This document shows positions 2,834 through 21,916 of a stretch of 21,916 nucleotides of DNA, one piece after another. Each line of letters starts with the position of its first letter. Position 1 is the first letter of the stretch. The notes beneath the pieces are model-generated. The model was not told the origin of the DNA and did no database searches. It saw only the letters and a program-made list of their open reading frames with translations. The translations under genes and the position numbers were made by a program. Where the stretch lies: the IMG/VR virus record IMGVR_UViG_2531839663_000005. One strand, given 5' to 3'. The stretch comes from a virus. Its lineage: Duplodnaviria > Heunggongvirae > Uroviricota > Caudoviricetes.

Positions 2834-2876
2834 CAACGCCAGTTAAATAGTTATTAGAAAACAGTCTTCACTGTCG

Positions 2877-2892
2877 TCACTTAATTAAGTGA
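2877..2892. promoter_or_regulatory. Perfect 16-bp palindrome TCACTTAATTAAGTGA, candidate operator upstream of the TerB-like gene
   Basis: Seen in sequence; lies in the AT-rich 94-bp gap about 36 nt upstream of the ATG at 2928. Confidence 0.35.
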
Positions 2893-2927
2893 TGGCGCTT
2901 TCACTCATCCTAAAAAGGATAAAGAGC

Positions 2928-3362: not shown

Positions 3363-3544
3363 TGCTGCGCGTGCTGGATTCACTACGTCCGGCGCTGGCC
3401 CTGCTGTTGGCCTTCATGGTCGTAGCAGTGGATTTCACCAGCTACCTGCTTTCGGTGATTGGCGACGCCTTCTTCGTTGGCGCTCTTCTTCTCCTTGTCT
3501 GGCCTGCCCTCAAGTCAGCTAACCAATCAGCGGATCACCAGTAA
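3362..3544 (+). CDS. Small predicted 2-TM membrane protein (60 aa), translationally coupled to the TerB-like gene
   Basis: Start ATG overlaps the upstream TGA (TGATG); two hydrophobic stretches (ALALLLAFMVVAV and FFVGALLLLVWPAL). Confidence 0.5.
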   Translation: MLRVLDSLRPALALLLAFMVVAVDFTSYLLSVIGDAFFVGALLLLVWPALKSANQSADHQ

Positions 3545-3586
3545 CAGATTGCCGGGGAAACCCGGCAATTTCGGAGGCTTCGAATC

Positions 3587-3799
3587 ATGACTAAACGCGA
3601 TCAATATAACTTCATCCTGCACGTTCTCTTACCTGCTGTTGAGCGTGAAGGGCTGACGATTAAAACCCGCCGCGATGGTGAGTTAACCCTTTCTTCTGAC
3701 GATCCCTCTGTTTCCTGCTTTATCGACGACATGCGCCAGCGCCTTACCACGGCGTTGCAGCGTCCGGCTGTTCCATCTTCCCCTTACGGAGTCCTGTAA
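3587..3799 (+). CDS. Hypothetical early protein (70 aa)
   Basis: ATG with GGAGG upstream; stop 1 nt before the dam start. Confidence 0.5.
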   Translation: MTKRDQYNFILHVLLPAVEREGLTIKTRRDGELTLSSDDPSVSCFIDDMRQRLTTALQRPAVPSSPYGVL

Positions 3800-3800
3800 A

Positions 3801-4772
3801 ATGATCCGCCCGTTCATCAAATGGGCAGGGGGTAAAACCCGTGTCCTTCCTGACCTGCTGCCACACCTTCCTACAGCCGACTGCCTGATCGAACCGTTCG
3901 TAGGCGGCGCGTCGGTATTTCTGGCGACTGAATACCGCCGCTATGTGCTGGCTGATATCAACCCGGATCTTATTAACCTGTATCGGGAAGTCACCCGTTA
4001 CCCGGACTTAGTGATCGATGCGGCCCGCGAACTGTTCAACAGTAAGAACAGCCCGCAGGGATACAACGAAGTCCGCGCCGCGTTCAATAAGCAGGTGGGT
4101 ACGGTAAAAAGCGGTGGGTTGCGTTATGGCGCTGAAATGGCGTGCATTATGCGCGCTGCTCAATTCCTGTATCTGAATCGCCACGGTTATAACGGCTTAT
4201 GCCGATACAGTCGGAAGACCGGCTTTAACGTGCCGTTTGGCAAGTATAAGAGCGTCTACTTTCCAGAAAATGAAATCCGCCTGTTTGCCGAAAAGGCCAA
4301 CGATACAAAGGCAATATTTCTTTGCGCGCCGTTCCAGCGTTCTCTACAGGTCGTCACGGGTGGCGATGTTCTCGTTTACTGCGATCCGCCTTACCTGCCT
4401 GAAAGCAAAACAGCCGATTTTACCCAATACCACACCGAACCATTCACGGAAGACAACCACCGCCAGTTAGTCCAGGCACTGCTGGAAGTTAACCGTAAGC
4501 ATGGCGTGAAGGTCGTCATTTCCAACAGCGACACCGAAGCCACCCGCGCGATTTATCAGCCCTTCAAGATGCACGAAATCAGCGTGCAACGTTCCGTCAG
4601 CACTGACAAAGACAACCGACAGAAGGCCAAAGAAGTGATCGGCGTGCTGCCTGTCTGCGACTGCTGCGGGCGTTACGGCGGCGGTTGCCCTGATTGTGGC
4701 GCCGTGATGGGTGATGCGACTTACAACGCGATGGTTGCGGCGGGCACGTTTGACGATCTGGAGGCTTTTTAA
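3801..4772 (+). CDS. dam: Dam-family N6-adenine DNA methyltransferase with a Cys-rich C-terminal tail
   Basis: N-terminal KWAGGK and EPFVGGASVF (AdoMet-binding) and DPPY catalytic motif; C-terminal CDCCGRYGGGCPDCG cluster not present in host Dam. Confidence 0.85.
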   Translation: MIRPFIKWAGGKTRVLPDLLPHLPTADCLIEPFVGGASVFLATEYRRYVLADINPDLINLYREVTRYPDLVIDAARELFNSKNSPQGYNEVRAAFNKQVGTVKSGGLRYGAEMACIMRAAQFLYLNRHGYNGLCRYSRKTGFNVPFGKYKSVYFPENEIRLFAEKANDTKAIFLCAPFQRSLQVVTGGDVLVYCDPPYLPESKTADFTQYHTEPFTEDNHRQLVQALLEVNRKHGVKVVISNSDTEATRAIYQPFKMHEISVQRSVSTDKDNRQKAKEVIGVLPVCDCCGRYGGGCPDCGAVMGDATYNAMVAAGTFDDLEAF

Positions 4773-5077
4773 TGGCAAAAATCTATATCGCTGGCCCGAT
4801 GAGCGGTTTGCCTGGATTCAATCGGCAGGCATTTAACCGTGCAGCCGGGCACGTAGTGCGACGCGGAAACGTTGCCCTTAATCCGGCGATTTTGCCGGAT
4901 GGATTAGAGCAGGCGGAATACATGGATATTTGCTTCGCCATGTTGCGTTGTGCTGACGAGATCTTCTTGCTGGATGGCTGGCAGCAGTCTGCCGGGGCAA
5001 GAGCAGAATGCGCGTTAGCTCAAAAGCTGGGGTTGAAGATCCAGCACCAGACGATCGATCGGTTCACGGGGGCGTAA
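4772..5077 (+). CDS. DUF4406-like protein (nucleoside 2-deoxyribosyltransferase-like fold), 101 aa
   Basis: N-terminal MAKIYIAGPMSG motif recalled as typical of DUF4406; GGAGG upstream; start overlaps the dam stop (TAATG) and its stop overlaps the A start. Confidence 0.6.
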   Translation: MAKIYIAGPMSGLPGFNRQAFNRAAGHVVRRGNVALNPAILPDGLEQAEYMDICFAMLRCADEIFLLDGWQQSAGARAECALAQKLGLKIQHQTIDRFTGA

Positions 5078-7536: not shown

Positions 7537-8004
7537 TTAATCGCCTTCATGAATGTTATTTTGATGATCCATTATCGCCATTGCCAGTTCCAGCTTAGTG
7601 CTTTCTAATAATTCCTCACATAGAACCAAATCATGAATAATCTGTTGTAGTAAATCCTTGCTGACAGCGCTATCCGCAACCCAAACAGCAATGTTCTCCA
7701 TTTCTTGGACAAAGAGCTTTACACAATGCTCAAACCCATTGATTTCAAGGAAGAATGCGGAGAGAAATATTCCGGATCTTTTATTGCCATCAGTAAAAGC
7801 GTGAAGTTTGTTCACTGAAAAAAACAAATGTGTGAGCTTTGACTCAAAGCTTGGGTAGTACCAATCATTTTGGATATGATCGAGGACACTCTCCAGTACT
7901 CCTCGATCGCGAATGCCTTGTAAACCGCCAGAGCGTTCAATGATGTGATCATGTACTGCTATGGCGTGCTCAATATCAAAGTAATTAAACTGAATCTCAT
8001 CCAT
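7537..8004 (-). CDS. Doc/Fic-family protein (death-on-curing-like toxin), 155 aa
   Basis: Fic/Doc active-site motif HAFTDGNKR (encoded at 7777-7803); GAGGG SD 7 nt upstream; 12 nt downstream of the partner gene stop; AT-rich compared with flanking phage genes. Confidence 0.8.
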   Translation of the reverse strand: MDEIQFNYFDIEHAIAVHDHIIERSGGLQGIRDRGVLESVLDHIQNDWYYPSFESKLTHLFFSVNKLHAFTDGNKRSGIFLSAFFLEINGFEHCVKLFVQEMENIAVWVADSAVSKDLLQQIIHDLVLCEELLESTKLELAMAIMDHQNNIHEGD

Positions 8005-8016
8005 GGCAGCACCCTC

Positions 8017-9030
8017 TTAGCGATCTTTTAAGCGTTTAAACACTTCAAGAGTTTCAGGGTCATTGAGTCTCTCTTCGAGTGACTTGCTTTTCTCGCCTAA
8101 GAATCTCTCAAAGTCGCTTTCTGGTACCGATCGGACATAAGCCTCAAGTTTTTCATGCAAGGCATCACGGAAGCATAGATCCCTGCTCGCCATTTTGGTG
8201 CGAACATCAACCAGCATTGGCTCGTATAAGGGATGCTTTTCCATTGTTGATAAGATGGATTCTGCTTCTTTATATGTGAGTTTTCTGCCCAGGTGGGTGG
8301 CTTTTTGTTTTATCTCGTGAGCGAGGCCAGCTTCGAAACTAGCAATTAAGGTGAGAACCTCAGAATACATCGTGTCACGAATTTTATCGTTTTGATGTAG
8401 TTTCAGCACCTTGCGGTACTCATTTGCATTCTCATGGAAAATGCTCTGATAAATCGCATTGGTGAGTTTTCCAAACTTCCAACCATTGGCATCTACATAA
8501 TCATTAAGAGCATCGGTGAACTGTTTCCGATAGCTTTCTTCCTTGAATGCTGCAACAAGATAATCTTCATCTCTTTGGTTGATAAATTTTGTATGTCCGC
8601 CAGCGCGTTCTGCCAGTGTGTCGATAACGATATCAAGTAAACGTGTTCGAATGATCCTCGCTTGCTCACTTTCAACAAGCAACATGGCAAGGTTTAATAC
8701 GGCTCGAAATTTAAACACTCCAAGAACAGACGTTTTGGTACCCTCATTCATGAGGGTACCATCTGCCACCTCTTTGAATTCCTTTAAAATTTTCCCTTTT
8801 AGAATGATGTATCCGTTGTTCTTTAATTCATCAATGTTGCTGGTTAGGTACCTTTCTATCGTTGCGTCGCTAACATCAAAAATCTCAACCAATTGATTTT
8901 TGGTAAACACTATCTCGCCATCAAATTCGATCCCGCCCAAAGCAAGATGCTTTTCGGCGTGCTTGAGTGCATACGAATTATTGAGAATGTTTTGTCTGTC
9001 GTGAGCGGAGGTTGTCAGATCCTTAGCCAT
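8017..9030 (-). CDS. RhuM-family-like protein (tentative), 337 aa; first gene of the cargo operon
   Basis: Strong ORF with AGGAAAAGG SD; N-terminal winged-helix-like segment and central NLAMLLVESEQARIIRTRLL / EYRKVL segments resemble my recollection of RhuM-family proteins. The family call is not verified. Confidence 0.7.
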   Translation of the reverse strand: MAKDLTTSAHDRQNILNNSYALKHAEKHLALGGIEFDGEIVFTKNQLVEIFDVSDATIERYLTSNIDELKNNGYIILKGKILKEFKEVADGTLMNEGTKTSVLGVFKFRAVLNLAMLLVESEQARIIRTRLLDIVIDTLAERAGGHTKFINQRDEDYLVAAFKEESYRKQFTDALNDYVDANGWKFGKLTNAIYQSIFHENANEYRKVLKLHQNDKIRDTMYSEVLTLIASFEAGLAHEIKQKATHLGRKLTYKEAESILSTMEKHPLYEPMLVDVRTKMASRDLCFRDALHEKLEAYVRSVPESDFERFLGEKSKSLEERLNDPETLEVFKRLKDR

Positions 9031-9147: not shown

Positions 9148-9268
9148 TGCAAAATTCCGCGCAAAACTGCACAAATTTTATGGTGGTTATTTTTCAGGAG
9201 CAGACCAGACGGGGCGGGCCTTCCGGTGGTCTGCACATTTGCACAAAAAAGCGGGGTTTCTGCGTGCG

Positions 9269-9288
9269 GGCGAGGCGGGGGAATGAGC
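9269..9288. other. cos-like sequence (phage cohesive end site), internal to the prophage
   Basis: GGCGAGGCGGGGGAATGAGC matches the first 12 nt of the P2 cohesive end as I recall it (GGCGAGGCGGGGAAAGCAC); lies just past the portal gene as expected for P2-type packaging. Confidence 0.5.
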
Positions 9289-9390
9289 GCGCGCTGAGGG
9301 GTGGGATAGGGTCGGTATTATCTGCGCCGATTTTCGCGCCGCTGCGCCTCGCTGCTGCGTCGTTTTCGGTTCGCCGTGGTGGTTTGAGGC

Positions 9391-9427
9391 AAAAGAAAAG
9401 CCCCTGCCAGCGGGCTGCTGAGGGGCT
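9391..9427 (-). terminator. Rho-independent terminator downstream of Q (P-Q operon)
   Basis: On the minus strand: 7-bp stem AGCCCCT/AGGGGCT with a structured loop, followed by TTTTCTTTT; about 70 nt after the Q stop. Confidence 0.55.
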
Positions 9428-9497
9428 TACGTGCGGTGTGGTCAGTTGCGGCCGTGCTGGCCGTTCCACGGTGGTGGTGGGTGTGTCCGGGCTGGCG

Positions 9498-10547
9498 TCA
9501 GATTGCTGCCTGCAACAGTGCGTAAGGATTGAAGCGCACCACGTCGATCCCCAGCCAGTCGTTTAACTCTTTCAGGCTTTCTTGTATCGGAGCCAGTTCG
9601 TTGATGGAAAACACCTTCGCCGCTTTCTCTACGTCGCCGAAGCCACCGGAGTTATTAGGCATTACCCCCATCAGAACGGGCGGCACGCGGTGCGCGGCTA
9701 GCAGGTCGTCGCGGGTGGCGTCTTTGATGCCGGTAAACTCATCCTTCGCCGCCACCTGGCTGAACGGCATAATTTGCAGGCCGTCTTTTTTCCCGCCCGC
9801 CGCGTAGACAAACAGGTTTTTAAAAGCACCGTTGCCGCGTGCATCTTTCAGCGACTTCTTAAGCTTTTCCACATCGTTATTATTCGCCACCGGGTCAGTG
9901 AGGTAGACGATCACACCCGCATGACTGCCGTTAATGTAGTAGTTGCGGCGGAACACCGTTGCTTCACCGTTCAGCATGGCGCTTTGTAGCGCGGCCAGAT
10001 ATTCCGGCGCGCCGTAGATCTCCTGGTGCGGGCTGGGGTTCTTGATCTGGCAGACGCTGCCCGGTTCGAACGCGTGATCGTCAACGTAGCGCGGAACAAA
10101 CCAGAATTGAGCCGGGTCTATGCCGCGCCGCGTATATTTCGCCTGGCTGTGCCGCAGCTCAATCGGCTGGCCGAGTCGGTTGCGGCGGCATTCCATGTAA
10201 CAGTTACCGAAAATTAAATAATCCTGCACCCAGGCGGTGAACTCCTGCCGGGTCAATAGCGGGTGTGGTATGTAGCAACTGGCGATAACATTGCGTTTAA
10301 ATATCAGCGGTGACTGGTGATAGGCGGCAACGTCGAACATGCGCGCAAGCCCGTAGGGGCTGATCGGTGGTTCATACCAGCGGCCATTGTTATGGCATTC
10401 GAGGCACTCCATAAGAGACGCGCGATCGTTGACTGCGATCGGGTCGCCAAAGCTGAAAGATTCCACGCTTTCCAGCGGGGTGGCTGCGTTGCTGGCCGTG
10501 CTGGCTGGCGCAGCAGTTGGCGCCCTGAATTTCTTTTTGCCGCTCAA
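9498..10547 (-). CDS. Q: Portal protein (P2 gpQ-like)
   Basis: 349 aa, same size class as P2 Q; TTG start at 10547 with GGAGGAG 6 nt upstream, directly abutting the P stop; position next to cos and the terminase. Confidence 0.85.
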   Translation of the reverse strand: MSGKKKFRAPTAAPASTASNAATPLESVESFSFGDPIAVNDRASLMECLECHNNGRWYEPPISPYGLARMFDVAAYHQSPLIFKRNVIASCYIPHPLLTRQEFTAWVQDYLIFGNCYMECRRNRLGQPIELRHSQAKYTRRGIDPAQFWFVPRYVDDHAFEPGSVCQIKNPSPHQEIYGAPEYLAALQSAMLNGEATVFRRNYYINGSHAGVIVYLTDPVANNNDVEKLKKSLKDARGNGAFKNLFVYAAGGKKDGLQIMPFSQVAAKDEFTGIKDATRDDLLAAHRVPPVLMGVMPNNSGGFGDVEKAAKVFSINELAPIQESLKELNDWLGIDVVRFNPYALLQAAI

Positions 10548-12260
10548 TTAAAACTCCTCCACAAAACTGCCGTTATCGCCGGTCACTTCCGCGCCGATCG
10601 GTTCGTTGTAAATGCCCTGCATAGTTGCCCATGCCAGATCGCCGTGATTGCTGCCACGGGCGCGATCGGACTGGTAGGTTATAACGCCGCCTGCGGTGAC
10701 TTTACGCACGGTCATAAACGACTGCGCGAGATCCATCATTCCGGCGTCGAACTCAAAGCGCCCGGCGCGAATGACCATCAACATTTTGAGCACCATCGAC
10801 CGCTTAAGAACCGGTGAATAGTTGTATTTAACCGCCTGCGGGAAGAACTTGACCACCAGTTGATAAACCGCATCGCCGATCCCTGTGCCGTCGATAGCAA
10901 TGTGCTGCACGTTGTAGCGGGTGGTGATCTCTTTAATAAATTTGGCCTGCTCTTCATACTCCATGCCGCGTAACTGGTGGCGCTCTACCGCGCGGAACTT
11001 ACCACCCGGCACGGCTGGCGGGGCTAGCACAACCAGCCCGGCGCTGTCGCCTTTGCCGCTGCTGCCGTTGGGATCATAGCTAACCCAGACAGGGCGATTA
11101 CCCAGCGGACGGGGTGCAAACGGGTTCCAGTCCGGCCACGCGTCCGGCATGTAGCCATCAACGCCGCAGCCCAGAATTGCGTTGTAGTCGAAGGCGCGTT
11201 CCCCGGCTTTAACGAACGTGCAGCCGTATAGGTTGGCGTATTCGTCGGGGGAGTTTTCGTTACGGATTTCATCGGTATCAACCAGATCGAAGCCGAGCTT
11301 CACGGCGTCTTCCAGCGTGACTATCTGGCGCCAGATGTTATCCCCGCATAGCTTGCCGTTTTTCAGTGCCTTATAACTGGTGTCTATATCCACCCGATCG
11401 GCACGGGGACGGTGTTTATTGAACTGATCGCCAGTCCAGAAGGGATAGGCTTCATGCTCTTCACTGGATGGCGTTGAAAAGTAGGTGCGGCGTAGCCCTT
11501 TCTGCGTCGCCATGCCTGCGGCGACTTTGCGCAGGTTGATGAAGTTGCTGATCCAGAAGGCTTCATCCAGGTACAGATCGCCGGTATAACTCTGGGCCGT
11601 CGCGGCGGAGGTGCCGAGAAAGTACAGGATCGCACCGTTGCTTAATTCAATCGCATCACCGCCCTTTAGTTCTACCCCTATTTCCCTTGCCAGCTTCTGA
11701 ATGAACCGCTTGAACTGGAACGCCTGGGCGCGGCTGGCTGACAGGAATATCTGGTTATTTCCGGTTTCCAGCGCACGCAACAGCGCTTCGCGGGCAAAGT
11801 ACCAGGTGGCACCAATCTGGCGCGATTTGAGGATAAAGCGGTTACGCCGGTTCCACTGTTTGAACCAGCGTTTTTGATGCTCGTATAGCGAATCAAAGAC
11901 CAAGGCGCGAAGCTGGGTTATCTGTTCTTCGGTGAAATGGTTTTTCGGGGTCTTTGCCTTCTTCTCTTTCTCCTGGTCGCGTCGCTCATGCCGTTCAAAG
12001 CGGTCAAGCTGGCGCGCCAGCAGGTCAATTTCTTTGAAGTCCTTCGGGGTTTTGTCGTCCTTTTCCACCAGGCGCAGGTAACGAACGTGCGTGCGATCCT
12101 GCACCCGCTGCATGGGGGTGGCTTTATCCCATTCATAGCGGCGGCGCCAACTGTAGATCGTGTTAATGCTCACCCCGATTTCCTTAGAAATCTGAGTGAT
12201 GCTAAACGCCTGCCAGTAGAGGCTTTTGGCTTTTGTGCTGAGGTCTTCGGCTGTATTCAT
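10548..12260 (-). CDS. P: Terminase large (ATPase) subunit (P2 gpP-like)
   Basis: 570 aa; N-terminal HTH-like segment (ITQISKEIGVSINTIYSWRRRY) plus ATPase/nuclease body; divergent from the O-N-M-L operon. Confidence 0.9.
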   Translation of the reverse strand: MNTAEDLSTKAKSLYWQAFSITQISKEIGVSINTIYSWRRRYEWDKATPMQRVQDRTHVRYLRLVEKDDKTPKDFKEIDLLARQLDRFERHERRDQEKEKKAKTPKNHFTEEQITQLRALVFDSLYEHQKRWFKQWNRRNRFILKSRQIGATWYFAREALLRALETGNNQIFLSASRAQAFQFKRFIQKLAREIGVELKGGDAIELSNGAILYFLGTSAATAQSYTGDLYLDEAFWISNFINLRKVAAGMATQKGLRRTYFSTPSSEEHEAYPFWTGDQFNKHRPRADRVDIDTSYKALKNGKLCGDNIWRQIVTLEDAVKLGFDLVDTDEIRNENSPDEYANLYGCTFVKAGERAFDYNAILGCGVDGYMPDAWPDWNPFAPRPLGNRPVWVSYDPNGSSGKGDSAGLVVLAPPAVPGGKFRAVERHQLRGMEYEEQAKFIKEITTRYNVQHIAIDGTGIGDAVYQLVVKFFPQAVKYNYSPVLKRSMVLKMLMVIRAGRFEFDAGMMDLAQSFMTVRKVTAGGVITYQSDRARGSNHGDLAWATMQGIYNEPIGAEVTGDNGSFVEEF

Positions 12261-12306
12261 GGCAACAGGCTATCGCGCTCGCGCGCGCAACAATATCGCC
12301 GCTGGT

Positions 12307-12324
12307 TGTCGCCTGAGTCCGACA
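12307..12324. promoter_or_regulatory. TGT-N12-ACA dyad (TGTCGCCTGAGTCCGACA), candidate Ogr/Delta-type late activator site in the P/O divergent promoter region
   Basis: Perfect dyad seen in sequence; P2-family late promoters carry TGT-N12-ACA upstream of -35 (established); adjacent alternating CG tract. Confidence 0.45.
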
Positions 12325-12413
12325 AAGTGAAGGCTTTGCGCCTTCCGGCTGCAAAGGGAATGATTGGGGCACTGGTTAATATCAATCGCTTACCAACCCG
12401 GAGCTTTGTCACC

Positions 12414-13259
12414 ATGCCAATGACAAATTTTTTCCGCGCCGCAGTAGAGGGCGCAACCTGTGACGGCCGCGTGCTGGAACGTCAGCACATCACCGAAATG
12501 GCCGAACAGTACGATCCCCAGGTCTATGGCGCCCGCGTCAATCTGGAGCACATTTTAGGCTGGTCGCCGACAAGCGATTTCCGCGCGTATGGTGATGTGG
12601 TCGAGACTAAAACCGAAGAGATTGCCGAAGGCCCGTTAAAGGGCAAGCTGGCGCTTCTGGTGAAGGTGGACGCCACGGATGAACTGGTCGAACTGAAGAA
12701 GAAACGCCAGAAAATCTACCATAGCGTTGAGGTGCATCCGTCCTTTGCAGACACCGGCAAAGCCTACCTTATGGGGCTGGCCTGTACTGATAACCCGGCG
12801 AGCCTGGGCACCGAAATGATGAAGTTTTGCACCCAGAACGCCAGCGCCAACCCACTGGCCGCGCGTCACTACGCACCTGAATGCTTCTTCACTGAAACCC
12901 TGGAATCATCCCTCGAATTTGCGCAGGAAGAGCCGCCAGCGTCCGACACCGGGAAGAATTTCTTTTCCCGTATCAAGGAAATGCTGACTGGAACCCGCCA
13001 GCACTTCGATCGTGAAAATGGCGATATCCGCCAGGCGGTTGAACTGGTAGCGGAAAGCCAGGGTGAATTGCTGGACAAGATGGAAAAACTGAGCGCAGGG
13101 CAACTTAAGAACAAGCAGACCGCCGAAGCGGTGGAGAAGTTGCGCTCTGAGTTCGACGAGATGAAAGCGCAGCTTTCTACCCAGGACGCCAGTAAATTCC
13201 GCCGCCCGGAAGCGACCGGCGCAACTGAAAAATCTAACGCCCAGCTTGCTGACTGCTGA
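12414..13259 (+). CDS. O: Capsid scaffolding protein (P2 gpO-like)
   Basis: 282 aa from ATG 12414 (GGAG upstream); the ORF-track start at 11937 overlaps gene P and is rejected; synteny P/O/N. Confidence 0.85.
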   Translation: MPMTNFFRAAVEGATCDGRVLERQHITEMAEQYDPQVYGARVNLEHILGWSPTSDFRAYGDVVETKTEEIAEGPLKGKLALLVKVDATDELVELKKKRQKIYHSVEVHPSFADTGKAYLMGLACTDNPASLGTEMMKFCTQNASANPLAARHYAPECFFTETLESSLEFAQEEPPASDTGKNFFSRIKEMLTGTRQHFDRENGDIRQAVELVAESQGELLDKMEKLSAGQLKNKQTAEAVEKLRSEFDEMKAQLSTQDASKFRRPEATGATEKSNAQLADC

Positions 13260-13299
13260 TCGCCGCCAGTAACGAAGGAACAGTACAGGAAATATAACT

Positions 13300-14346
13300 A
13301 TGCGTAATTCTACCCGTGAATTGTTTGATGCGTATCTTGAGCGACAAGCTGAACTGAATCACATCAACAAGTCCCACGTAACAAAGTCGTTCAGCATTGA
13401 TCCAAGTGTTGAGCAGACGCTTGAAGACAAGGTGCAGCAGTCTTCCGAAATGCTGAAGCTGATTAACATCTACGGCGTTAACGATCAGACCGGTGAAAAA
13501 ATCGGTCTGGGCGTGAGCGGCCCGATTTCCAGCACTAACAATTCCACCACCGATCGCCGCCAGCCTGTATCCGTTACGGCGCTGGATTCGAACAAGTACA
13601 CCTGTAATAAGGTGAACGCGGATACTTTCGCCTCATATGCGCAGCTTGATGCCTGGGCTAAATTCCCGGATTTCCAGCAGCGTCTGAGCAATCAGATCAT
13701 TCAGCGTATCGCGCTTGACCGCATCATGATCGGCTTTAACGGAACCAGCTACGCGGATAAGTCCGACCGCAACGCTAACCCGCTTTTGCAGGATTGTGGT
13801 ATTGGCTGGTTGCAACAGTACCGCGCGAACGCGCCGCAACGTGTCATGAAAGATATCACCGTGACCAGCCGCGACGATTCCAACCAGGTGATCGCTAAAG
13901 GTGATTACGGTAACTACGACTCGCTGGTTTATGACGCGGTTAACTCACTGATGGACGAATGGTACAAAGATTCGCCCAATCTTGTGGTGATCACTGGTCG
14001 TAACCTGACGGTTAGCCGTTCGTTCCCGATCATCAATGCCGTAAGCACCAATAACCCGAACTCCGAAGCGCTGGCCGGTCAGTTGATCGCATCGCGTAAG
14101 ACGATCGGCAACCTGCCTTCGTTCATCGCGCCTTTCTTCCCTGATGGCAGCATGTTTATCACTTCGTGGGAAAACCTGTCGATTTACTGGCAGGAAGGTG
14201 CGCACCGTCGCCGTATCGTGGAAGAGCCGGAATATAACCGCGTCTCTACCTACAGTTCGTCAAATGATGCCTACGTTGTTGAAGATTACGGCTTCGGCTG
14301 TCTGATCGAAGGCATTACCGCCGCAGAACCAGCACCGGCACCATAA
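13300..14346 (+). CDS. N: Major capsid protein (P2 gpN-like)
   Basis: 348 aa; AGGA upstream; synteny between O and M. Confidence 0.9.
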   Translation: MRNSTRELFDAYLERQAELNHINKSHVTKSFSIDPSVEQTLEDKVQQSSEMLKLINIYGVNDQTGEKIGLGVSGPISSTNNSTTDRRQPVSVTALDSNKYTCNKVNADTFASYAQLDAWAKFPDFQQRLSNQIIQRIALDRIMIGFNGTSYADKSDRNANPLLQDCGIGWLQQYRANAPQRVMKDITVTSRDDSNQVIAKGDYGNYDSLVYDAVNSLMDEWYKDSPNLVVITGRNLTVSRSFPIINAVSTNNPNSEALAGQLIASRKTIGNLPSFIAPFFPDGSMFITSWENLSIYWQEGAHRRRIVEEPEYNRVSTYSSSNDAYVVEDYGFGCLIEGITAAEPAPAP

Positions 14347-14355
14347 ATCAGCGCA

Positions 14356-14374
14356 GGCCAGCTAACTGCTGGCC
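14356..14374 (+). terminator. Weak hairpin after the major capsid gene (possible attenuator)
   Basis: GGCCAGC-taact-GCTGGCC followed by GCTTTGGGGG; only a short T-run. Confidence 0.25.
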
Positions 14375-14388
14375 GCTTTGGGGGCATC

Positions 14389-15015
14389 ATGTTGACACCT
14401 GCTCAACAACATTTTAACCGCGTGATGGCAGAACGCCGCCACGCCAGCCGTGAGCCGTCGCAGCTTGAAATGACGGCCTACGAAACCATGCTTCACCGCC
14501 TGCGACTGGATAAAGCACGTTTGAGCCGTGTCCAGTCCCAGAAGGCTAAAGCGGATTTAAAACGCGAACTGCTGCCGGACTATCAGCCGTGGATCGAAGG
14601 CGTACTTACGGCAGATTCCGGCCAGTCTGACGACGTGTTAACCACTGTCATGATCTGGTGTTGTGACTGCGGAAACATCGCCGAAGCCCTGCGCATTGGT
14701 CAGTACGTATTGCGCCATAAGTTGCCGATGCCGGATCAGTATCGCCGCACCACCGCCACCGTACTGGTGGAAGAAATTTGCGATCCCGTCCTGGCTGCAT
14801 TCAAAGCTAACCCGGCTGTTGCGCCGGTCGCTGCTGACCTGCTGGAAGCGTTACGGGGTTTAACCCTGAACGAAGATATGCCGGATGAGGTGCGCTCAAA
14901 GCTGCTTAAGGCGCTGGGGTATACGCTGCGCCTGACTGACAACGTTGAATCGCTTACCGCTGCGGTTGAATACCTGCGTCAGGCGGCAGTGTTGAACCCG
15001 AAAAAGCAGGCGTAA
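14389..15015 (+). CDS. M: Terminase small (endonuclease) subunit (P2 gpM-like), zero-frame part only; see frame break
   Basis: 208 aa in frame; GGGGG SD; synteny N-M-L. The ORF stops early compared with the recalled size of P2 M (about 247 aa) and leaves a 320-nt gap before L. Confidence 0.8.
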   Translation: MLTPAQQHFNRVMAERRHASREPSQLEMTAYETMLHRLRLDKARLSRVQSQKAKADLKRELLPDYQPWIEGVLTADSGQSDDVLTTVMIWCCDCGNIAEALRIGQYVLRHKLPMPDQYRRTTATVLVEEICDPVLAAFKANPAVAPVAADLLEALRGLTLNEDMPDEVRSKLLKALGYTLRLTDNVESLTAAVEYLRQAAVLNPKKQA

Positions 15016-15236
15016 CCCGTGATATTGAGCTTCTGCAACGTGCGCTTAAGAAGTCCGGGCAACCTGCTGACAGTGACGGCGCAGGCGGCAAGCCAGAAGC
15101 GAACAGCACCGAAACCCAGACGGCAACGCCGCCAGCGCAGCCAAAAGCGAAGCGGGAAACCAAAAAGCCCGCCGCTAAAAGTAAGCCGGCAGCGAAGAAT
15201 AGAACCACGACAGCCCGCCAGAAGGCGGCGTCATAA
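15006..15236 (+). CDS. M: Probable C-terminal extension of gpM in the -1 frame (76 codons, K/A/P/T-rich), reached by a frameshift at G_AAA_AAG (15000-15006) or separated by a 1-nt indel
   Basis: Open frame with no in-frame ATG/GTG/TTG; translation ...AGVTRDIELLQRALKKSGQPADSDGAGGKPEANSTETQTATPPAQPKAKRETKKPAAKSKPAAKNRTTTARQKAAS; fills the otherwise empty M-L gap. Confidence 0.4.
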   Translation, partial: AGVTRDIELLQRALKKSGQPADSDGAGGKPEANSTETQTATPPAQPKAKRETKKPAAKSKPAAKNRTTTARQKAAS

Positions 15237-15338
15237 CCGAACGTGCCCCCGCGCACCCAGGCGGCACGGCAGGCGAAAACAGGCAACGCCGCGTCTTCGT
15301 CCTGCCGTCCACCGCCTGACTTATACGGAGTAGAGATC

Positions 15339-15827
15339 ATGAGTCTGGTAGCCACTGAGCCAGTACGGCCACCATCCGATCCCGTACCGGATGATGGCGG
15401 CGCGAAAGTTGAAAGCCTGCCATTCTGGCCGGTCATTTCGCTGGCTGAACTACGCCGTGCGATGCGTCTTGATGGGCAGGTGACAACCGATCGCCTGATG
15501 TCGCGAACGGTGGAAGCGGTGGCCCATGTTAATGATCAGCTTTTCCTGTGGCGCCAGGTGCAGATTGATGCGGGCTATGAGTCACTGGCAGAAATTCCGG
15601 CCAGTCCGTTGAATGGCACTTCCGTGAAGGTATGGCGCTATAAAAATGCCGTGTATTCACTCACTAAGGCGCTGTTGATTGAAGGCTACCGCGATATTGA
15701 CACCACCAGTAAAGGCGAAGACCACGCGGCGGCATTAAGCACGCAGATCGATACGCTGTGGCGGGATGTGCGCTGGTCAATCCGTGATATCCAGGATGAA
15801 AGCCGGGGCTTGGCGGAGTTGGTGTAA
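15339..15827 (+). CDS. L: Head completion/stabilisation protein (P2 gpL-like)
   Basis: 162 aa from ATG 15339 (GGAG upstream); the ORF-track start 15243 is rejected; stop overlaps the X start (TAATG). Confidence 0.8.
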   Translation: MSLVATEPVRPPSDPVPDDGGAKVESLPFWPVISLAELRRAMRLDGQVTTDRLMSRTVEAVAHVNDQLFLWRQVQIDAGYESLAEIPASPLNGTSVKVWRYKNAVYSLTKALLIEGYRDIDTTSKGEDHAAALSTQIDTLWRDVRWSIRDIQDESRGLAELV

Positions 15828-16027
15828 TGAACGTTCAGGCGCAGCAAAACGACACGATCGACCTGCTTTGCTGGCGCTATTACGGCAGAACAGCAGGTGT
15901 TACCGAGGCGGTGATCGATGCCAATAAGGGCATTTCCGCCGCCACTGAGTTGCAGGCCGGGCAGATTGTCTACCTGCCAGAGATCCAGCCGCCAGCCCAG
16001 CGGGAAACCGTGCAGCTATGGGATTAA
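15827..16027 (+). CDS. X: Tail protein X-like (66 aa)
   Basis: Size and position match P2 gpX; translationally coupled to L. Confidence 0.7.
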   Translation: MNVQAQQNDTIDLLCWRYYGRTAGVTEAVIDANKGISAATELQAGQIVYLPEIQPPAQRETVQLWD

Positions 16028-16037
16028 GGGGGAGGGT

Positions 16038-16373
16038 ATGCACGACACACCACCGGGATTACTCGAACAAACAATGAAATGGATCGCTACTTATCTGCCG
16101 ACACTGTTTGCGGCTGGTGCGGCGCTGAGTATTTCGGCGCTAATGAGCCTTTACGATGGGCAGTCTTTGCTTAAAACCGCCACCGGATCGCTGGTATGTG
16201 GGATTGTCACGCTTGCTGTGGCCGGTTCGCTGGAATATCTGGGGCTTCCGTCCAACGCAGTAACATTCGTGGGCGCCTCAATCGGATTTATGGGCGCGGA
16301 TAAAGTCCGCAACAAAGTTACCGGGTTTATCGAAAACCGAATCGGAGGGATGAAAGGTGGAGATGAGCAATAA
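16038..16373 (+). CDS. Holin (3 predicted TM segments, charged C-terminus)
   Basis: ATG 16038 with GGGGGAGGG SD; hydrophobic segments and C-terminal DKVRNKVTGFIENRIGGMKGGDEQ; possible dual start (Met1 and Met13). Confidence 0.7.
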   Translation: MHDTPPGLLEQTMKWIATYLPTLFAAGAALSISALMSLYDGQSLLKTATGSLVCGIVTLAVAGSLEYLGLPSNAVTFVGASIGFMGADKVRNKVTGFIENRIGGMKGGDEQ

Positions 16374-16797
16374 CGGCATCAACATGCTGAAAGGCTTTGA
16401 AGGGTGCAGGCTGGCCGCTTATCAGGATTCTGTAGGCGTCTGGACGATCGGTTATGGATGGACTCAACCCGTCAACGGCGTGCCGGTTGGCAAGGGCATG
16501 ACCATCACGCAGGAAACTGCCGATAGCCTGTTGCGTAGCGGTCTGGTGCAGTATGAAAAAGGCGTTACGGGGCTGGTTAAAGTCACTATCAATCAAAATC
16601 AGTTCGATGCGCTGGTTGATTTTGCCTACAACCTGGGCGTAAAGGCGTTGGAAGGTTCCACACCGCTGAAAAAGCTGAATGCTGGCGATTTCACCGGGGC
16701 TGCGGCTGAGTTTCCGAAATGGAATAAAGCAGGCGGCAAGGTGTTGCCGGGGCTGGTTAAGCGCCGGGAAGCCGAGCGCACGTTATTTCTGGCCTGA
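16357..16797 (+). CDS. Endolysin, GH24 phage-lysozyme type
   Basis: N-terminal FEG...YQD...TIGYG pattern typical of T4/P22-type lysozymes; GTG 16357 (or ATG 16363) overlapping the holin stop. Confidence 0.8.
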   Translation: MEMSNNGINMLKGFEGCRLAAYQDSVGVWTIGYGWTQPVNGVPVGKGMTITQETADSLLRSGLVQYEKGVTGLVKVTINQNQFDALVDFAYNLGVKALEGSTPLKKLNAGDFTGAAAEFPKWNKAGGKVLPGLVKRREAERTLFLA

Positions 16798-16854
16798 TCA
16801 TTTTTAACTGTGCTGGCCGTGCGTATCGAGCGCGGTCATTTTTGACAGTGCTCC
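16798..16854. repeat. Two copies of a ~17-19 nt direct repeat TCATTTTT(A/G)AC(T/A)GTGCT in the endolysin-lysB gap
   Basis: Copies at 16798-16816 and 16836-16854 (15/19 identical); seen in sequence; function unknown. Confidence 0.3.
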
Positions 16855-16898
16855 AGCACGTCCGATATTGACGGTGCGAGCTGGCGAGAGGTTTTGAA

Positions 16899-17432
16899 AT
16901 GGGGCTGTTATCACGCTGGAAAGTGATTGTTTGTTTTGTGCTGGCCGCTGCTGCTGTATGGGGTTTTAGCCACTGGCGTTACAGCGCCGGTTACGGTGAT
17001 GCCGATCAGCACTGGCGTGAAGAGTGGGCGCAACGTGATGCACGCGACGCCACCGCGCTGGCACAAAGGCAGGCTGAGGCCAGGGCAGAAGAACAACGCC
17101 GACAAGGTGAAATTGATGCGATCAGAAAACAAGCCAGCCAGCAGCTTGCTGGCGTGCAGGCTGATGCCGATCGTGCCCGTGCTGCTTCTCGTGGGCTGCA
17201 CGACAGGGCCGACAAACTCGCCAGGCAACTGGCAGACCGTGAACGCGCCTGCGGTGCCGGATCTCCCGGCAGAAGCGAGGCAGAAACCAGCGGCGCCGTA
17301 CTGCTCGCCGACTTGTTCCGCCGCGCTGACGATCGAGCGGGGCAACTGGCAAAAGATGCTGATGAAGCAAGAGCCAGAGGATTAGCCTGTGAGGCTGCGT
17401 ATGATGCGGTTAAGTCCGGGAGGGATAAGTAA
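16899..17432 (+). CDS. lysB: Rz-like i-spanin (LysB-like)
   Basis: N-terminal TM segment (WKVIVCFVLAAAAVWGF), then a long R/A/E/Q-rich coiled-coil-like region; GAGAGG SD; follows the endolysin. Confidence 0.7.
   Translation: MGLLSRWKVIVCFVLAAAAVWGFSHWRYSAGYGDADQHWREEWAQRDARDATALAQRQAEARAEEQRRQGEIDAIRKQASQQLAGVQADADRARAASRGLHDRADKLARQLADRERACGAGSPGRSEAETSGAVLLADLFRRADDRAGQLAKDADEARARGLACEAAYDAVKSGRDK
17116..17385 (+). CDS. lysC: Rz1-like o-spanin lipoprotein embedded in lysB (+1 frame); alternative start 17164
   Basis: Lipobox LLVGC after a hydrophobic stretch, Pro-rich mature region; AAGGTGA SD before 17116; fully nested in the i-spanin gene. Confidence 0.5.
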   Translation: MRSENKPASSLLACRLMPIVPVLLLVGCTTGPTNSPGNWQTVNAPAVPDLPAEARQKPAAPYCSPTCSAALTIERGNWQKMLMKQEPED

Positions 17433-17926
17433 TGCTTAAACCCGATTTGCTGCGCCAGATGATAAGCCAGCATGTGCCCTGGCTGCGCGAGAATCCCGAT
17501 AATCTGGCGGTTTACCTGCGTAAAGGCCGTATGGTCAGCACCGGCCAGCGTGCTGCTGCGTTTGAGTATCGCTATACGCTGGAAGTGCTTGTGATGGATT
17601 ACCCTGAATCTCTGGATACTATCAGCGTGCCGGTGCTGGCATGGGCGCGCTTATATCAGCCTGATCTGTTGTTTAACCCGGACAGGCAGCAGAACGGCAT
17701 AACATTCGAAGCCGATATCCTGAGTAACAGCACGATGGACGTGCTGATCCAGATTCAGGCTGATGAAGCGGTGATCGTCACCCGTGAAGATGGCGAAATC
17801 GTCACCCGTCACCGTGCTGACCCTGCACCGGGGCCAGAAATTGGCGCGTGGTCACTGGTATTTGTTGATGAGGTCAGCGGCGAAACATGGCAGGACAACA
17901 AACCGATCCCCTCTTCCAGCAGTTAG
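17432..17926 (+). CDS. R: Tail completion protein (P2 gpR-like)
   Basis: 164 aa; GGGAGGG SD; start overlaps the lysB stop (TAATG); synteny. Confidence 0.8.
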   Translation: MLKPDLLRQMISQHVPWLRENPDNLAVYLRKGRMVSTGQRAAAFEYRYTLEVLVMDYPESLDTISVPVLAWARLYQPDLLFNPDRQQNGITFEADILSNSTMDVLIQIQADEAVIVTREDGEIVTRHRADPAPGPEIGAWSLVFVDEVSGETWQDNKPIPSSSS

Positions 17927-18531
17927 ACGACTGGCTAGCCAGTGTGGCCGCGCAGCTTTCGCCGGGGCACCGTCGCAAGCTGACGCGCGACGTTGCGATT
18001 GGGCTGCGTAAGCGTCAGCAAAAGCGTATCGCCAGCCAGAAGAACCCCAGCGGCGAAAGCTATCAGGCCCGCCGACGCAAAATCCTGCGCACCCAGGGCG
18101 GGATAAAGTTCATATGGAATGATGAGGCCAGGGAGTTACGCAACTGGCGAACTACGGGCAGGGGTGAGCACCGCGCAATCACCGGCTATGACGTTGATCG
18201 CGGTGCCCTGCGCACGTTCTATAAGCGCGATATCCAGCGCTATATTGAAATCAATCTCAACCAGTCAAAGCAGAACCGCACCAGAAAGGATCCGATGTTC
18301 CGTAAGCTGCGCACCGCACGCTTTCTTAAGGCTTACGGTACGGGCGGCATGGCCGTGGTTGGCTTTCAGGGGCATACCGCCGAAATTGCCAGCGTTCACC
18401 AGTACGGTGAAGTCGATAACGTGGTGCCGGGTGCCCGTGCGCGCTACCCGGTGCGTGAACTCCTGGGCATGACCGAGGGGGATTTAGACTGGCTGGCCGA
18501 TACTGTTGTTGCCTTCATGCAAGAGATTTGA
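17887..18531 (+). CDS. S: Virion morphogenesis / tail completion protein (P2 gpS-like)
   Basis: 214 aa; overlaps the R 3' end by 40 nt; synteny R-S-V; weak SD, so the start is uncertain. Confidence 0.7.
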   Translation: MAGQQTDPLFQQLDDWLASVAAQLSPGHRRKLTRDVAIGLRKRQQKRIASQKNPSGESYQARRRKILRTQGGIKFIWNDEARELRNWRTTGRGEHRAITGYDVDRGALRTFYKRDIQRYIEINLNQSKQNRTRKDPMFRKLRTARFLKAYGTGGMAVVGFQGHTAEIASVHQYGEVDNVVPGARARYPVRELLGMTEGDLDWLADTVVAFMQEI

Positions 18532-18532
18532 T

Positions 18533-18550
18533 TGTCACAAACCCGCCACA
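18533..18550. promoter_or_regulatory. TGT-N12-ACA dyad (TGTCACAAACCCGCCACA), candidate Ogr/Delta-type site of the late promoter for V-W-J-I-H
   Basis: Perfect dyad seen 2 nt after the S stop, about 140-155 nt upstream of the V ATG; followed by an alternating GCGCGCGCGCG tract. Confidence 0.45.
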
Positions 18551-18688
18551 ATGGCGCCGCGTTGTTTGCGCGCGCGCGACTCCTGATACTGACTGCATAA
18601 CCCAAAAGCCGAAACGGTCGTAAAGCCTGCTACCGGGTGTAAGCGACGCCGGACAGCGTAACCGGCACCACGGGAAACAGTCAGCACT

Positions 18689-19318
18689 ATGAATTTAAAC
18701 GAACTCTATCGCCTTATCTGCAATCTCGCCCGCATTGGCACCGTGCTGGAAGTGGATACGGAAAAGTATCTTGCACGCGTCGAAACCGGCGAGAACAAAA
18801 CCGACTGGATCCGCTGGGCAGTGCCGCGCGCCGGTGAAGCCGTGACGTGGTGGGCGCCGACAGTGGGCGAACAGGTTTATATTTTGTGCCCCTGCGGTGA
18901 GATGGAAACGGCATTTATTGCCGGAAGCCTTTACAGCGAAGACGCACCGCCGCCAGATGCTGGCGCTACCACCTGCGTAATCCTGCACCCGGATGGCGCC
19001 CGTATTTCATATGACCCGGAGGCCAGCGCGCTGGTTGTCAGCGGGGTAAAAACGGCAAGCGTCACCGCGTCGGAATCCATTACCGCCACCGTGCCGGTGG
19101 TAACGGTCAAGGCAGACACGCGCGTTACCCTGGACACGCCGGAAGTGGTCTGCACCAACAAGCTGATCACCGCCACGCTGGAAGTGCAAAACGGTGGGGA
19201 AATGAAGGGCAACATTACCCATTCAGGCGGATCGCTTTCGTCTAATGGTGTCGTTGTCCATTCGCACAAACATAGCGGCGTCCAGTCCGGTGGCAGTAAT
19301 ACAGGTGGCCCGGTATGA
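18689..19318 (+). CDS. V: Baseplate spike/assembly protein (P2 gpV-like)
   Basis: 209 aa (P2 V is about 211); synteny; stop overlaps the W start (ATGA). Confidence 0.85.
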   Translation: MNLNELYRLICNLARIGTVLEVDTEKYLARVETGENKTDWIRWAVPRAGEAVTWWAPTVGEQVYILCPCGEMETAFIAGSLYSEDAPPPDAGATTCVILHPDGARISYDPEASALVVSGVKTASVTASESITATVPVVTVKADTRVTLDTPEVVCTNKLITATLEVQNGGEMKGNITHSGGSLSSNGVVVHSHKHSGVQSGGSNTGGPV

Positions 19319-19677
19319 GTACAGTCCGTTACAGCGGCATGAATGCCGGTTCAGGCCATGCCATCACCGACAACGAGCATATAGCGCAGTCTATCGGCGA
19401 TATTCTGTTAACGCCGATCGGTTCCCGTGTAATGCGCCGCGCTTACGGTTCGCAGCTTTTCAACCTGATAGATCAGCCGGTCGATAACGCCATAACGAAG
19501 CTGCGCGTTATGTCTGCCATTTACAGCGCCCTGTATTTATGGGAACCGCGTATCTCTCTGACCAGTATTACCCTGAGCGCGCCGGGTGCTGGTCGGCTGG
19601 TTGCCACTATTCAGGCCAACCGCACCGACAATCAGACGCCATTTAACGCCGATATCACATTGAGGGGCCAGGCATGA
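19315..19677 (+). CDS. W: Baseplate wedge protein (P2 gpW-like, gp25-like)
   Basis: 120 aa; ATGA overlaps with V and J. Confidence 0.85.
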   Translation: MSTVRYSGMNAGSGHAITDNEHIAQSIGDILLTPIGSRVMRRAYGSQLFNLIDQPVDNAITKLRVMSAIYSALYLWEPRISLTSITLSAPGAGRLVATIQANRTDNQTPFNADITLRGQA

Positions 19678-20585
19678 GCGGCACGATCGATTTATCGCAG
19701 CTACCGCCGCCCGTGGTGGTTGAACCGCTGGACTTCGAAACGCTTTTCGCGCAGCGCAAGGCCGCATTTATTGCGATGTACCCGGAAGATGAACAGGAAG
19801 AGATCGCCCGCACGCTTGAGCTTGAATCGGAGCCGATCACCATGCTGCTGGAAGAGAATTGCTATCGCGAATTGCTGTTGCGCCAGCGGGTGAATGAAGC
19901 GGCCCGCGCGGTGATGCTGGCTTATTCCACGGATAGCGATTTGGATAATCTGGCGGTCAATTTCAACGTTGAACGTCTGACCATTCAGGAAGAAGACGAC
20001 AGCGTTACCCCGCCAATTGAAGCCGTGATGGAGTCAGATCCGGATTTACGCACGCGTACCCAGCAGGCTTTTGAAGGTCTGAGCGTGGCCGGGCCAACGG
20101 CGGCGTATGAATTTTGGGGGCGTTCGGCAGACGGGCGCGTAGCTGATATTTCGGCGGTCAGTCCTACACCTGCTTGCGTCACCATTTCGGTGCTGTCGCG
20201 TGAGGGTGACGGAACGGCCAGCGATGATCTGCTTTCCGTGGTCGCTACTGCCCTGAACGATGAAGAGGTGCGCCCGGTGGCCGACAGGGTAACGGTGCAG
20301 TCTGCGGAGATCGTGCCGTATCAGATCGATGCAACGCTTTACATCTATCCGGGGCCGGAAGCAGAACCCGTCCGGCAGGCATCGGAGCAACAGTTACAGG
20401 CGTATATTGCCGCGCAGAATCGCTTAGGGCGCGATATCCGTCTTTCAGCTATCTACGCCGCCCTGCACGTCGAAGGTGTCCAGCGCGTGGAACTGGCGCA
20501 GCCTGTTGCGGATATCGTGCTGAGTGACTACCAGGCATCACACTGCACCGAATACACCATAACGGTGGGTGGTTACGATGAGTAA
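19674..20585 (+). CDS. J: Baseplate assembly protein J
   Basis: 303 aa (P2 J is about 302); synteny. Confidence 0.85.
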   Translation: MSGTIDLSQLPPPVVVEPLDFETLFAQRKAAFIAMYPEDEQEEIARTLELESEPITMLLEENCYRELLLRQRVNEAARAVMLAYSTDSDLDNLAVNFNVERLTIQEEDDSVTPPIEAVMESDPDLRTRTQQAFEGLSVAGPTAAYEFWGRSADGRVADISAVSPTPACVTISVLSREGDGTASDDLLSVVATALNDEEVRPVADRVTVQSAEIVPYQIDATLYIYPGPEAEPVRQASEQQLQAYIAAQNRLGRDIRLSAIYAALHVEGVQRVELAQPVADIVLSDYQASHCTEYTITVGGYDE

Positions 20586-21192
20586 TGACCTGTTACCGCC
20601 GAGCGCCAGCCGAATGGAGCGCGTCGCCGCGCGCGTCTGTGCGTCGTTGGGTGAAGTGCCCGTGCCATTGCGCCAGTTGTGGAACCCGTGGACGTGTCGG
20701 GCTGATCTGCTGCCCTATCTGGCGTGGGCCTTCTCCGTTGATCGCTGGGATGAGGCCTGGCCGATCAGCACGAAACGAAAGGCGGTGGCCGATGCGTTCT
20801 ACCTGCATAAGTACAAGGGTACAACGGGTGCCATGCGCCGGGTTGTGGAGCCGTTCGGCTTCTTCATCCGGGTTAACGAGTGGTGGAACATTGATACCGC
20901 ACCGGGCACCTTCACGCTGGATATTGGCGTGGAAGACCAGGGCATTAGTGAAGAAACCTATCAGGAGCTTGAACGCCTGATCGCCGATGTGAAGCCGTGC
21001 AGCCGTCATATGCTGGGAATGTCTCTTCACCTGCAAACAACCGGCGATCTGTATATCGGCGCGGGTAGTTATTCCGGCGATACGCTGACTGTGTACCCGT
21101 ATTTCCCTGAAACCATAGCCGTGGGCGGTGATGATTACACCGGGGCGGCAATCCATTTAATTGACACCGTGGAGATCGCAAGTGGCGACTAA
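20578..21192 (+). CDS. I: Baseplate protein I (tail formation)
   Basis: 204 aa from ATG 20578 overlapping the J stop; alternative GTG at 20569; synteny. Confidence 0.8.
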   Translation: MSNDLLPPSASRMERVAARVCASLGEVPVPLRQLWNPWTCRADLLPYLAWAFSVDRWDEAWPISTKRKAVADAFYLHKYKGTTGAMRRVVEPFGFFIRVNEWWNIDTAPGTFTLDIGVEDQGISEETYQELERLIADVKPCSRHMLGMSLHLQTTGDLYIGAGSYSGDTLTVYPYFPETIAVGGDDYTGAAIHLIDTVEIASGD

Positions 21193-21916
21193 ATATTATG
21201 CCGTGCTAACCAATGTGGGCGCGGCGAAACTGGCAAATGCCACGGCATTGGGTGCGCAGGTTGAGATCACCCAGATGGCTGTAGGCGATGGTAACGGCGC
21301 ATTGCCGACGCCGAACCCGGCACAAACGGCGCTGGTTCATGAGTTGCGCCATGCGCCACTCAATACCCTGAGCATTGATCCTAACAACGCCAACCAGATT
21401 ATTGCCGAGCAGGTGATCCCCGAAGACGTGGGCGGGTGGTGGATCCGTGAAATCGGCTTATTCGATAAAGACGGCGATATGATTGCCGTAGCCAACTGCG
21501 CGGAAACCTATAAGCCGCAGTTGCAGGAAGGTAGCGGGCGCGTTCAGATTGTCCGCATGATCCTGATCGTCAGCAACACCGCCGCCGTGACGCTCAAAAT
21601 TGACCCGTCCGTAGTGCTGGCAACTCGCGCTTATGTTGATTCTCAAATTATTATCGCGAAATCGTATGCAGATGATTTGATGGATACACATCTTGCGAAT
21701 GCGAATCCACATGATCAGTACCCATTGATTGCGAATGCGCTCAAAGAAATGGCCGACGCCGGATTGGTTGACGAGGTTCTCAAAAACCTTCGTTTGGGAG
21801 CGGGTGCACCTGCCATCGGTATTCCGTTCTTCTGGCCATCCTCGGCGATGCCTAATACTGTTATGACAGAATGGGCCGATATGGTGTTTTTGAAGTTCAA
21901 CGGGGCGACATTCTCA
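21182..21916 (+). CDS. H: Tail fibre protein H, N-terminal part (3' end truncated by the window edge)
   Basis: GTG 21182 overlapping the I stop; N-terminal region (AVLTNVGAAKLANA...MAVGDGNGALPTPN...YKPQLQEGSGR) resembles the conserved N-terminus of P2 H; ORF still open at 21916. Confidence 0.8.
   Translation, partial: MATKYYAVLTNVGAAKLANATALGAQVEITQMAVGDGNGALPTPNPAQTALVHELRHAPLNTLSIDPNNANQIIAEQVIPEDVGGWWIREIGLFDKDGDMIAVANCAETYKPQLQEGSGRVQIVRMILIVSNTAAVTLKIDPSVVLATRAYVDSQIIIAKSYADDLMDTHLANANPHDQYPLIANALKEMADAGLVDEVLKNLRLGAGAPAIGIPFFWPSSAMPNTVMTEWADMVFLKFNGATFS

Follow-up and report, generated by a model that had tools for sequence, protein, structure and literature searches.

Programmed −1 frameshifting at dnaX and at IS3/IS911-type sites relies on the slippery heptamer A_AAA_AAG, preceded by a Shine-Dalgarno-like element and followed by a stem-loop or pseudoknot. 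Sharma et al., in a systematic study in E. coli, found A_AA.G to be the most shift-prone tetramer; tetramers lacking a stimulator gave 0.147% against a background of 0.112%, and A_AA.G reached a few per cent only together with the IS3 pseudoknot (PMC4066793). P2 uses a programmed −1 frameshift in its tail-chaperone genes E/E′, a feature conserved across tailed phages. Compensatory frameshifting on homopolymer indels, for instance on the G-run of herpesvirus thymidine kinase, forms a further, reviewed class (PMC5009743).

We analysed a stretch of 21,916 nucleotides (IMG/VR record IMGVR_UViG_2531839663_000005, hereafter the window), in which the small-terminase gene M is interrupted by a frame break. 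A first-pass annotation made from the sequence alone had left two explanations open: a programmed −1 frameshift yielding two M isoforms, with E/E′ of the same phage family as the ground for expecting recoding, or a one-nucleotide deletion or homopolymer error. The E/E′ site belongs to another gene, located outside the window. Comparison with relatives makes it very probable that a single A was lost from a run of six, so that the break would be a frameshift allele or a base-calling error and not programmed frameshifting.

Gene M of a P2-like prophage is split over two frames

The window represents a P2-like prophage containing integrase, cox, replication gene A, Q/P, O, N, M, L, and X, together with holin, lysozyme, tail, and baseplate genes, a gene content also found in its E. 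coli relatives. Contig AFAD02000011.1 of E. coli 2.4168 (GCA_000194555.2) matches the 6.6 kb around M at 100% identity, and the nearest phage records are the Salmonella phages SEN4 and SEN5 (Peduoviridae, Senquatrovirus), with 97% identity over the M–L region. Gene M is located in the late operon, flanked by the P2-family capsid gene N on one side and the head-completion gene L on the other, and lies opposite Q/P, as in SEN5 and E. coli prophages. The zero-frame part of M (14389–15015, + strand), identified in the open reading frame list and by translation, comprises 208 codons followed by a premature TAA. Its product matches the complete PF05944 (Phage_term_smal) profile (positions 1–130) with residues 35–167 (E = 8.7e-43, 145.9 bits; Pfam gathering cut-off 29.4 bits), which places it in the small-terminase family of P2 gpM. 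The same PF05944 domain and the same position between N and L characterize gpM, the terminase endonuclease subunit of P2-like phages, the closest members being those of SEN4/SEN5 and the E. coli prophage protein WP_044597455.1. DNA identity to these relatives is 97–99.9%, and with the missing A put back the protein matches WP_044597455.1 at 100% identity; the window differs from them in having one A fewer in the A6 tract, which spreads the gene over two frames in this record.

Read from the ATG at 14389, the zero frame passes through CCG (14998–15000), AAA, AAG (15004–15006), CAG, and GCG to the TAA at 15013–15015, and the 208-residue product ends in ...AAVLNPKKQA. The stop is thus located 7 nt 3′ of CCG_AAA_AAG (14998–15006, + strand), as the first-pass annotation had stated. 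The −1 frame is preceded by a TGA at 14967–14969, open from 14970, and closed by a TAA at 15234–15236; its 89 codons include no ATG, GTG, or TTG, which bears out the earlier reading of an open frame without a start codon. Its portion at 15006–15236 (+ strand, 76 codons and TAA) harbors the displaced C-terminal coding part of M, which begins with AGVTRDIELLQRALKK and continues into a basic tail rich in K, A, P, and T, again in line with what had been described. The −1 frame translates as ...PEKAGVTRDIELLQRALKKSGQPADSDG...KPAAKSKPAAKNRTTTARQKAAS. Gene L starts with the ATG at 15340, which leaves 324 nt after the zero-frame stop (a gap previously estimated at about 320 nt), or 103 nt when counted from the stop of the −1 frame. 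This 103-nt M–L spacer (15237–15339, + strand) is normal, since annotated relatives have the same spacing; in one of them (L002), locus position 1849 is the end of gpM and 1952 the start of L. The motif itself is ordinary: GAAAAAG occurs in frame at four further places in open reading frames of at least 100 amino acids within the window, and in all four cases the frame continues unbroken. The frame break alone is the unusual point, and it is accounted for by one missing base.

Two long open reading frames overlap the stranded M tail, a 160-residue antisense frame (14954–15436, − strand) and a 104-residue Arg-rich frame in the frame of M (15019–15333, + strand), and in the source contig a gene caller placed a 133-residue antisense frame there (3566–3967 of L008). 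These are probably spurious fillers of the gap left by the frame break.

Elsewhere in the window, relatedness to the prophage in LT883142 is mosaic. The early and regulatory half (1–7422) is 97.75% identical (167 mismatches) and the late, structural half (9200–21800) is 99.94% identical (7 mismatches), a pattern that suggests recent recombination between P2-like prophages. Between replication gene A (5008–7434) and portal gene Q (9498–10547), a variable slot on the − strand (7537–9030) contains two genes. One encodes a 336-residue protein matching the PADLOC candidate defence family PDC-M59A (E = 9.5e-105), and the other a 154-residue Fic/DOC protein (PF02661, E = 1e-13) that also matches PDC-M59B (E = 2.6e-30). 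In relatives, the slot holds other cargo, including ImmA/IrrE with a hypothetical protein (LT883142) and DUF3800. In the scaffold gene O (12698–12701), paired 1-nt indels located 3 nt apart distinguish the lineages (GAAGAAG-AAAC versus GAA-AGGCAAAC); the frame is restored, and one or two residues are altered.

The −1 frame encodes the C-terminus of M

Joining 14389–15006 with 15006–15236 mimics a −1 shift after AAG, and the resulting protein of 282 residues is 100% identical to WP_044597455.1 of ECONIH5. At the junction the fused product reads ...AAVLNPKKAGVTR, where the zero-frame product has its terminal ...AAVLNPKKQA. The restored tail contains a conserved helix, AGVTRDIELLQRAL, followed by the lysine-rich tail. 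A tblastn search with the 282-residue protein against 50,697 phage records matched 445 of them, and in all 60 rows sampled the match was a single piece. All but the three weakest of these rows continue past residue 206 in one frame, typically to 221–241, with P2, PSP3, P88, and Burkholderia, Ralstonia, Pseudomonas, and Yersinia phages among them; the three weakest (26.6%, 28.2%, and 24.0% identity) end at residue 210–211 in the first two cases and at 181 in the last. A search of PDB sequences with the same protein returned chance-level matches only, so that the role of the lost tail is not illuminated by any structure related in sequence.

Alignment of the junction with distant gpM proteins further supports this assignment. 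The pattern LNP(K)K-AGV[TK][RK][DE]I..L.R.L is contiguous in P88, P2, and the Burkholderia phage phiE12-2, and the first ~20 residues of the tail align in frame with all three. The fused product of the window reads LNPKK-AGVTRDIELLQRALKK across the junction, P88 reads LNP-N-AGVKREIATLSRALKK, P2 reads LDC-Q-AGVKKEIERLERELK, and phiE12-2 reads LND-R-VGVKKDIDRLTKQV. By this homology, the −1 frame stretch is the true C-terminal part of M. A stop at the equivalent of 15015, one of the outcomes that the first-pass annotation had considered, is not seen in homologous M proteins. The distant homologues have neither Lys-Lys nor an A run at the junction, which indicates that the wild-type A6 tract is no conserved recoding site either.

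The same comparison bears on whether M might be naturally short and 15006–15236 a small gene of its own that encodes a basic DNA-binding protein. The 88 open codons and their basic, low-complexity composition would fit such a gene, but the frame has no start codon of the three kinds, its product is a collinear homologue of the C-terminus in gpM proteins made from one frame, and those proteins run on beyond the point where M stops here. We therefore ruled this candidate out, in accordance with the first-pass annotation, and give it a practically nil probability. In the P2 gpM family, the post-domain helix AGVxxxIxxLxRxL and the basic tail belong to one open reading frame; in the window, the codons for these residues come after the premature stop and are in the −1 frame, and since the residues are contiguous in every homologue, the window carries a frameshifted allele of a family member.

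Relatives carry six adenines at the site

The A5 tract (15001–15005, + strand) is the site of the single-base loss, since alignment, pairwise comparison, and 44 pattern matches all show A6 in every homologue read there. In all six homologues read at the site, GAAAAAAG (A6) is found together with an uninterrupted gpM gene of 849 nt and 282 residues, the gene length having been checked in the five records inspected. In the alignment, SEN5, ECONIH5, LT883142, TOK-001, and OY754834 share GAAAAAAG, while the window has GAAAAAG. A megablast search with 14389–15340 (952 nt) found the corresponding segment to be 953 nt long in 4 of 4 phage records and 29 of 29 E. coli complete-genome records, all 33 annotated with an intact gpM or terminase small subunit. 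Over these 952 nt, one A is all that separates the window from its closest relative, ECONIH5. The prophage in LT883142 aligns in two blocks over ~20 kb, and the missing A is the only indel. A search with a pattern that accepted A5 or A6 likewise returned A6 throughout (44/44), in 24 of 24 IMG/VR contigs, 19 of 19 metagenome contigs, and the single GTDB match, from one representative genome.

The sequences themselves demonstrate that the base is missing, that this loss sets the window apart from these relatives, and that the tail is homologous to the C-terminus of M. These findings agree with the alternative of the first-pass annotation in which one extra A would fuse the two frames. The A-run length and the two-frame arrangement, which that annotation had suggested comparing among relatives, are not conserved. 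It had itself held that homologues with a single uninterrupted frame and six As would refute programmed frameshifting and point to a sequencing or assembly error, and this is how the homologues are arranged.

The features of a programmed frameshift site are absent

An evolved programmed −1 frameshift at G_AAA_AAG, of the dnaX or IS3 kind, would produce M isoforms of 208 and 282 residues in a set ratio. The locus resembles such a site in several respects: like dnaX and the IS3/IS911-type sites it has AAA_AAG in the zero frame and a stop soon after, the A_AAG that it contains is of the most shift-prone tetramer type in E. coli (PMC4066793), and the open −1 frame, which lacks a start codon, supplies the true C-terminal part of M. 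The two-frame layout, however, was seen in none of the homologues examined, which comprise the 33 BLAST records, the 44 pattern matches, and the distant phages. Near-identical siblings with A6 exist in the same sequence background; the layout has therefore arisen very recently and is no conserved trait.

The heptamer is also non-canonical. The first-pass annotation called it dnaX-like, which holds for AAA_AAG in the zero frame but not for the first base, which is G instead of A. In CC[G_AAA_AAG] the X_XX position of X_XXY_YYZ is occupied by G_AA, and only the A_AAG tetramer is canonical, because the P-site AAA (tRNA-Lys) would have to re-pair to GAA. Removal of any one A from the wild-type CCG AAA AAA GCA gives CCG AAA AAG CAG, so the slippery-looking site CCG_AAA_AAG is an automatic by-product of the deletion.

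In addition, the stimulatory elements found at dnaX and IS3/IS911-type sites were not detected. The 40 nt upstream (14961–15000) contain no GGAG, GAGG, AGGA, AGGG, or GGGG that could act as a Shine-Dalgarno-like stimulator. Downstream, where the first-pass annotation had suggested looking for a stem-loop, three windows were folded against dinucleotide shuffles, in predictions limited to hairpins, and none performed better than the shuffles. The best hairpin, in 15007–15060, reaches −14.4 kcal/mol (z = −0.5), a stability equalled or exceeded by 52 of 200 shuffles; the two longer windows are worse than their shuffles (z = +0.7 and +1.5). Since unstimulated tetramers barely exceed background in E. 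coli (PMC4066793), any slippage at this site is expected to be near background. Programmed frameshifting at M is refuted by these comparisons, and we consider it extremely unlikely that two isoforms are made by recoding.

Slippage during transcription was dropped as a candidate on general grounds. E. coli RNA polymerase slips appreciably on runs of about nine or more, and A5–A6 would be too short for this.

The A5 allele recurs in several sequence backgrounds

The exact 208-residue product (WP_001373665.1, EII66257.1) is encoded by about 12 contigs (11 in the cluster table, 12 in the contig look-up), while the exact 282-residue protein occurs in 265 contigs and belongs to a cluster of 948 members. 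The A5 contigs represent at least four sequence backgrounds, separated by 27–41 mismatches over 1.5 kb. An A6 sibling (L048) differs from the background of the window by 2 mismatches over 6.6 kb, and another (L064) differs by 1–3 mismatches from group B, the second main A5 background. Since the two best-sampled backgrounds each have a near-identical A6 sibling, the A5 state is recent and recurrent, and does not represent an old conserved lineage.

Four of ten A5 contigs (L009, L012, L014, and L016) contain further single-base deletions, all of them in homopolymers (T6 to T5, A6 to A5, G6 to G5, A5 to A4, A3 to A2, and C3 to C2). Such additional deletions are the signature of homopolymer under-calling in error-prone reads. 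The other six A5 contigs show no other homopolymer indel, and for two of these otherwise clean contigs the run accessions adjoin those of the deletion-bearing runs. The recurrence of A5 was therefore rejected as proof of a real, selected variant: it fits a homopolymer hot spot for errors or mutations, and provides no evidence of selection.

The extra deletions are located at the window equivalents 12428, 13084, 13496, 14139, 14262, and 15246 (L012, L014, L016, and L009), and at 5266 in L009. In public (Logan) assemblies, deletions of this kind split capsid gene N into products of 71 and 263 residues and split a CHAP lysis gene.

Whether the A is missing from the DNA of the strain or only from the assembly is rated about even. 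A pure sequencing error, that is, a homopolymer under-call in the assembly, would be in keeping with the plainly error-prone reads behind part of the A5 contigs. Against it, the window shows no other indel relative to LT883142 over ~20 kb aligned, with 17 homopolymer runs reaching 6 nt or more and 74 reaching 5 nt or more, and the six A5 contigs noted above are equally free of other homopolymer indels. A real slipped-strand deletion in the homopolymer of a gene on which no selection acts in the lysogen, leaving an M-defective prophage, is about as likely. Against this reading, A5 is found in none of 77 sequences from complete or curated collections, and part of the A5 contigs are of error-prone origin.

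Discussion

Taken together, M of this SEN4/SEN5-type (Senquatrovirus-like) prophage of E. coli 2.4168 is normally one uninterrupted gene of 282 codons containing CCG AAA AAA GCA. With one A gone from the A6 tract in this record, the frame meets a TAA two codons past the tract, and the last 76 codons, encoding the conserved helix and the lysine-rich tail, are stranded in the −1 frame. G_AAA_AAG is the remnant of AAA AAA G minus one A, and no evolved signal. We found no evidence contrary to a one-base loss. Of the first-pass interpretation, the deletion or error alternative and the identification of the tail as the M C-terminus were upheld, and programmed recoding with two isoforms was not. The locus contains no new feature: it is a known gene in an ordinary frameshifted allele, or else an artefact.

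One non-trivial reading is left, compensatory frameshifting, which supposes a real deletion and a trace of gpM restored by adventitious −1 slips of tRNA-Lys on A_AAG at a low level. A rare −1 slip after AAG yields exactly the wild-type protein, residue for residue, which makes such restoration possible, and the prophage would be leaky rather than dead. As a tetramer preceded by a Lys codon, A_AAG has some intrinsic slipperiness in E. coli and may allow a trace of full-length M protein. The A5 allele is also present in several assemblies free of other homopolymer errors, and the locus shares with the documented homopolymer frameshift alleles (PMC5009743) a single-base indel on a run where a slip would restore the wild-type protein. 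In contrast to that class, the window gives no sign of selection of the allele or of slippage above background, and its deletion may exist in the assembly only. The expected unstimulated efficiency is near background, around 0.1–0.5% (PMC4066793), and no stimulatory element was detected. There is also no sign that the allele persisted long enough for selection, because the background of the window and the main second background each have an A6 sibling 0–3 mismatches away. We consider this reading unlikely, though with a small probability of being correct. An extended version, in which A5 is real in E. coli 2.4168 and other lineages and is tolerated through low-level tRNA-Lys slippage, with the A6 tract acting as a crude, reversible on/off/leaky packaging switch, is very unlikely; if true, it would be a case of compensatory frameshifting in a phage terminase.

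The single-base loss, which remains our preferred explanation, carries a caution: a stop just past AAA_AAG together with an open −1 frame mimics textbook recoding, and is here the mechanical result of one lost A. An annotation of M should flag a frameshift or a possible sequencing error, and should not list a 208-residue protein (WP_001373665.1) followed by a gap, a gap that one gene caller has already filled with a spurious antisense frame. Truncated proteins from error-prone assemblies populate protein databases.

If the deletion is real, the zero-frame product would keep the PF05944 core (residues 35–167) and would lose the basic tail together with the helix, which is conserved from enterobacterial and E. 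coli phages to Burkholderia phages. A truncated M without this conserved post-domain segment would likely have lost terminase function. The prophage would then probably be defective in packaging, which bears on any inference of its inducibility.
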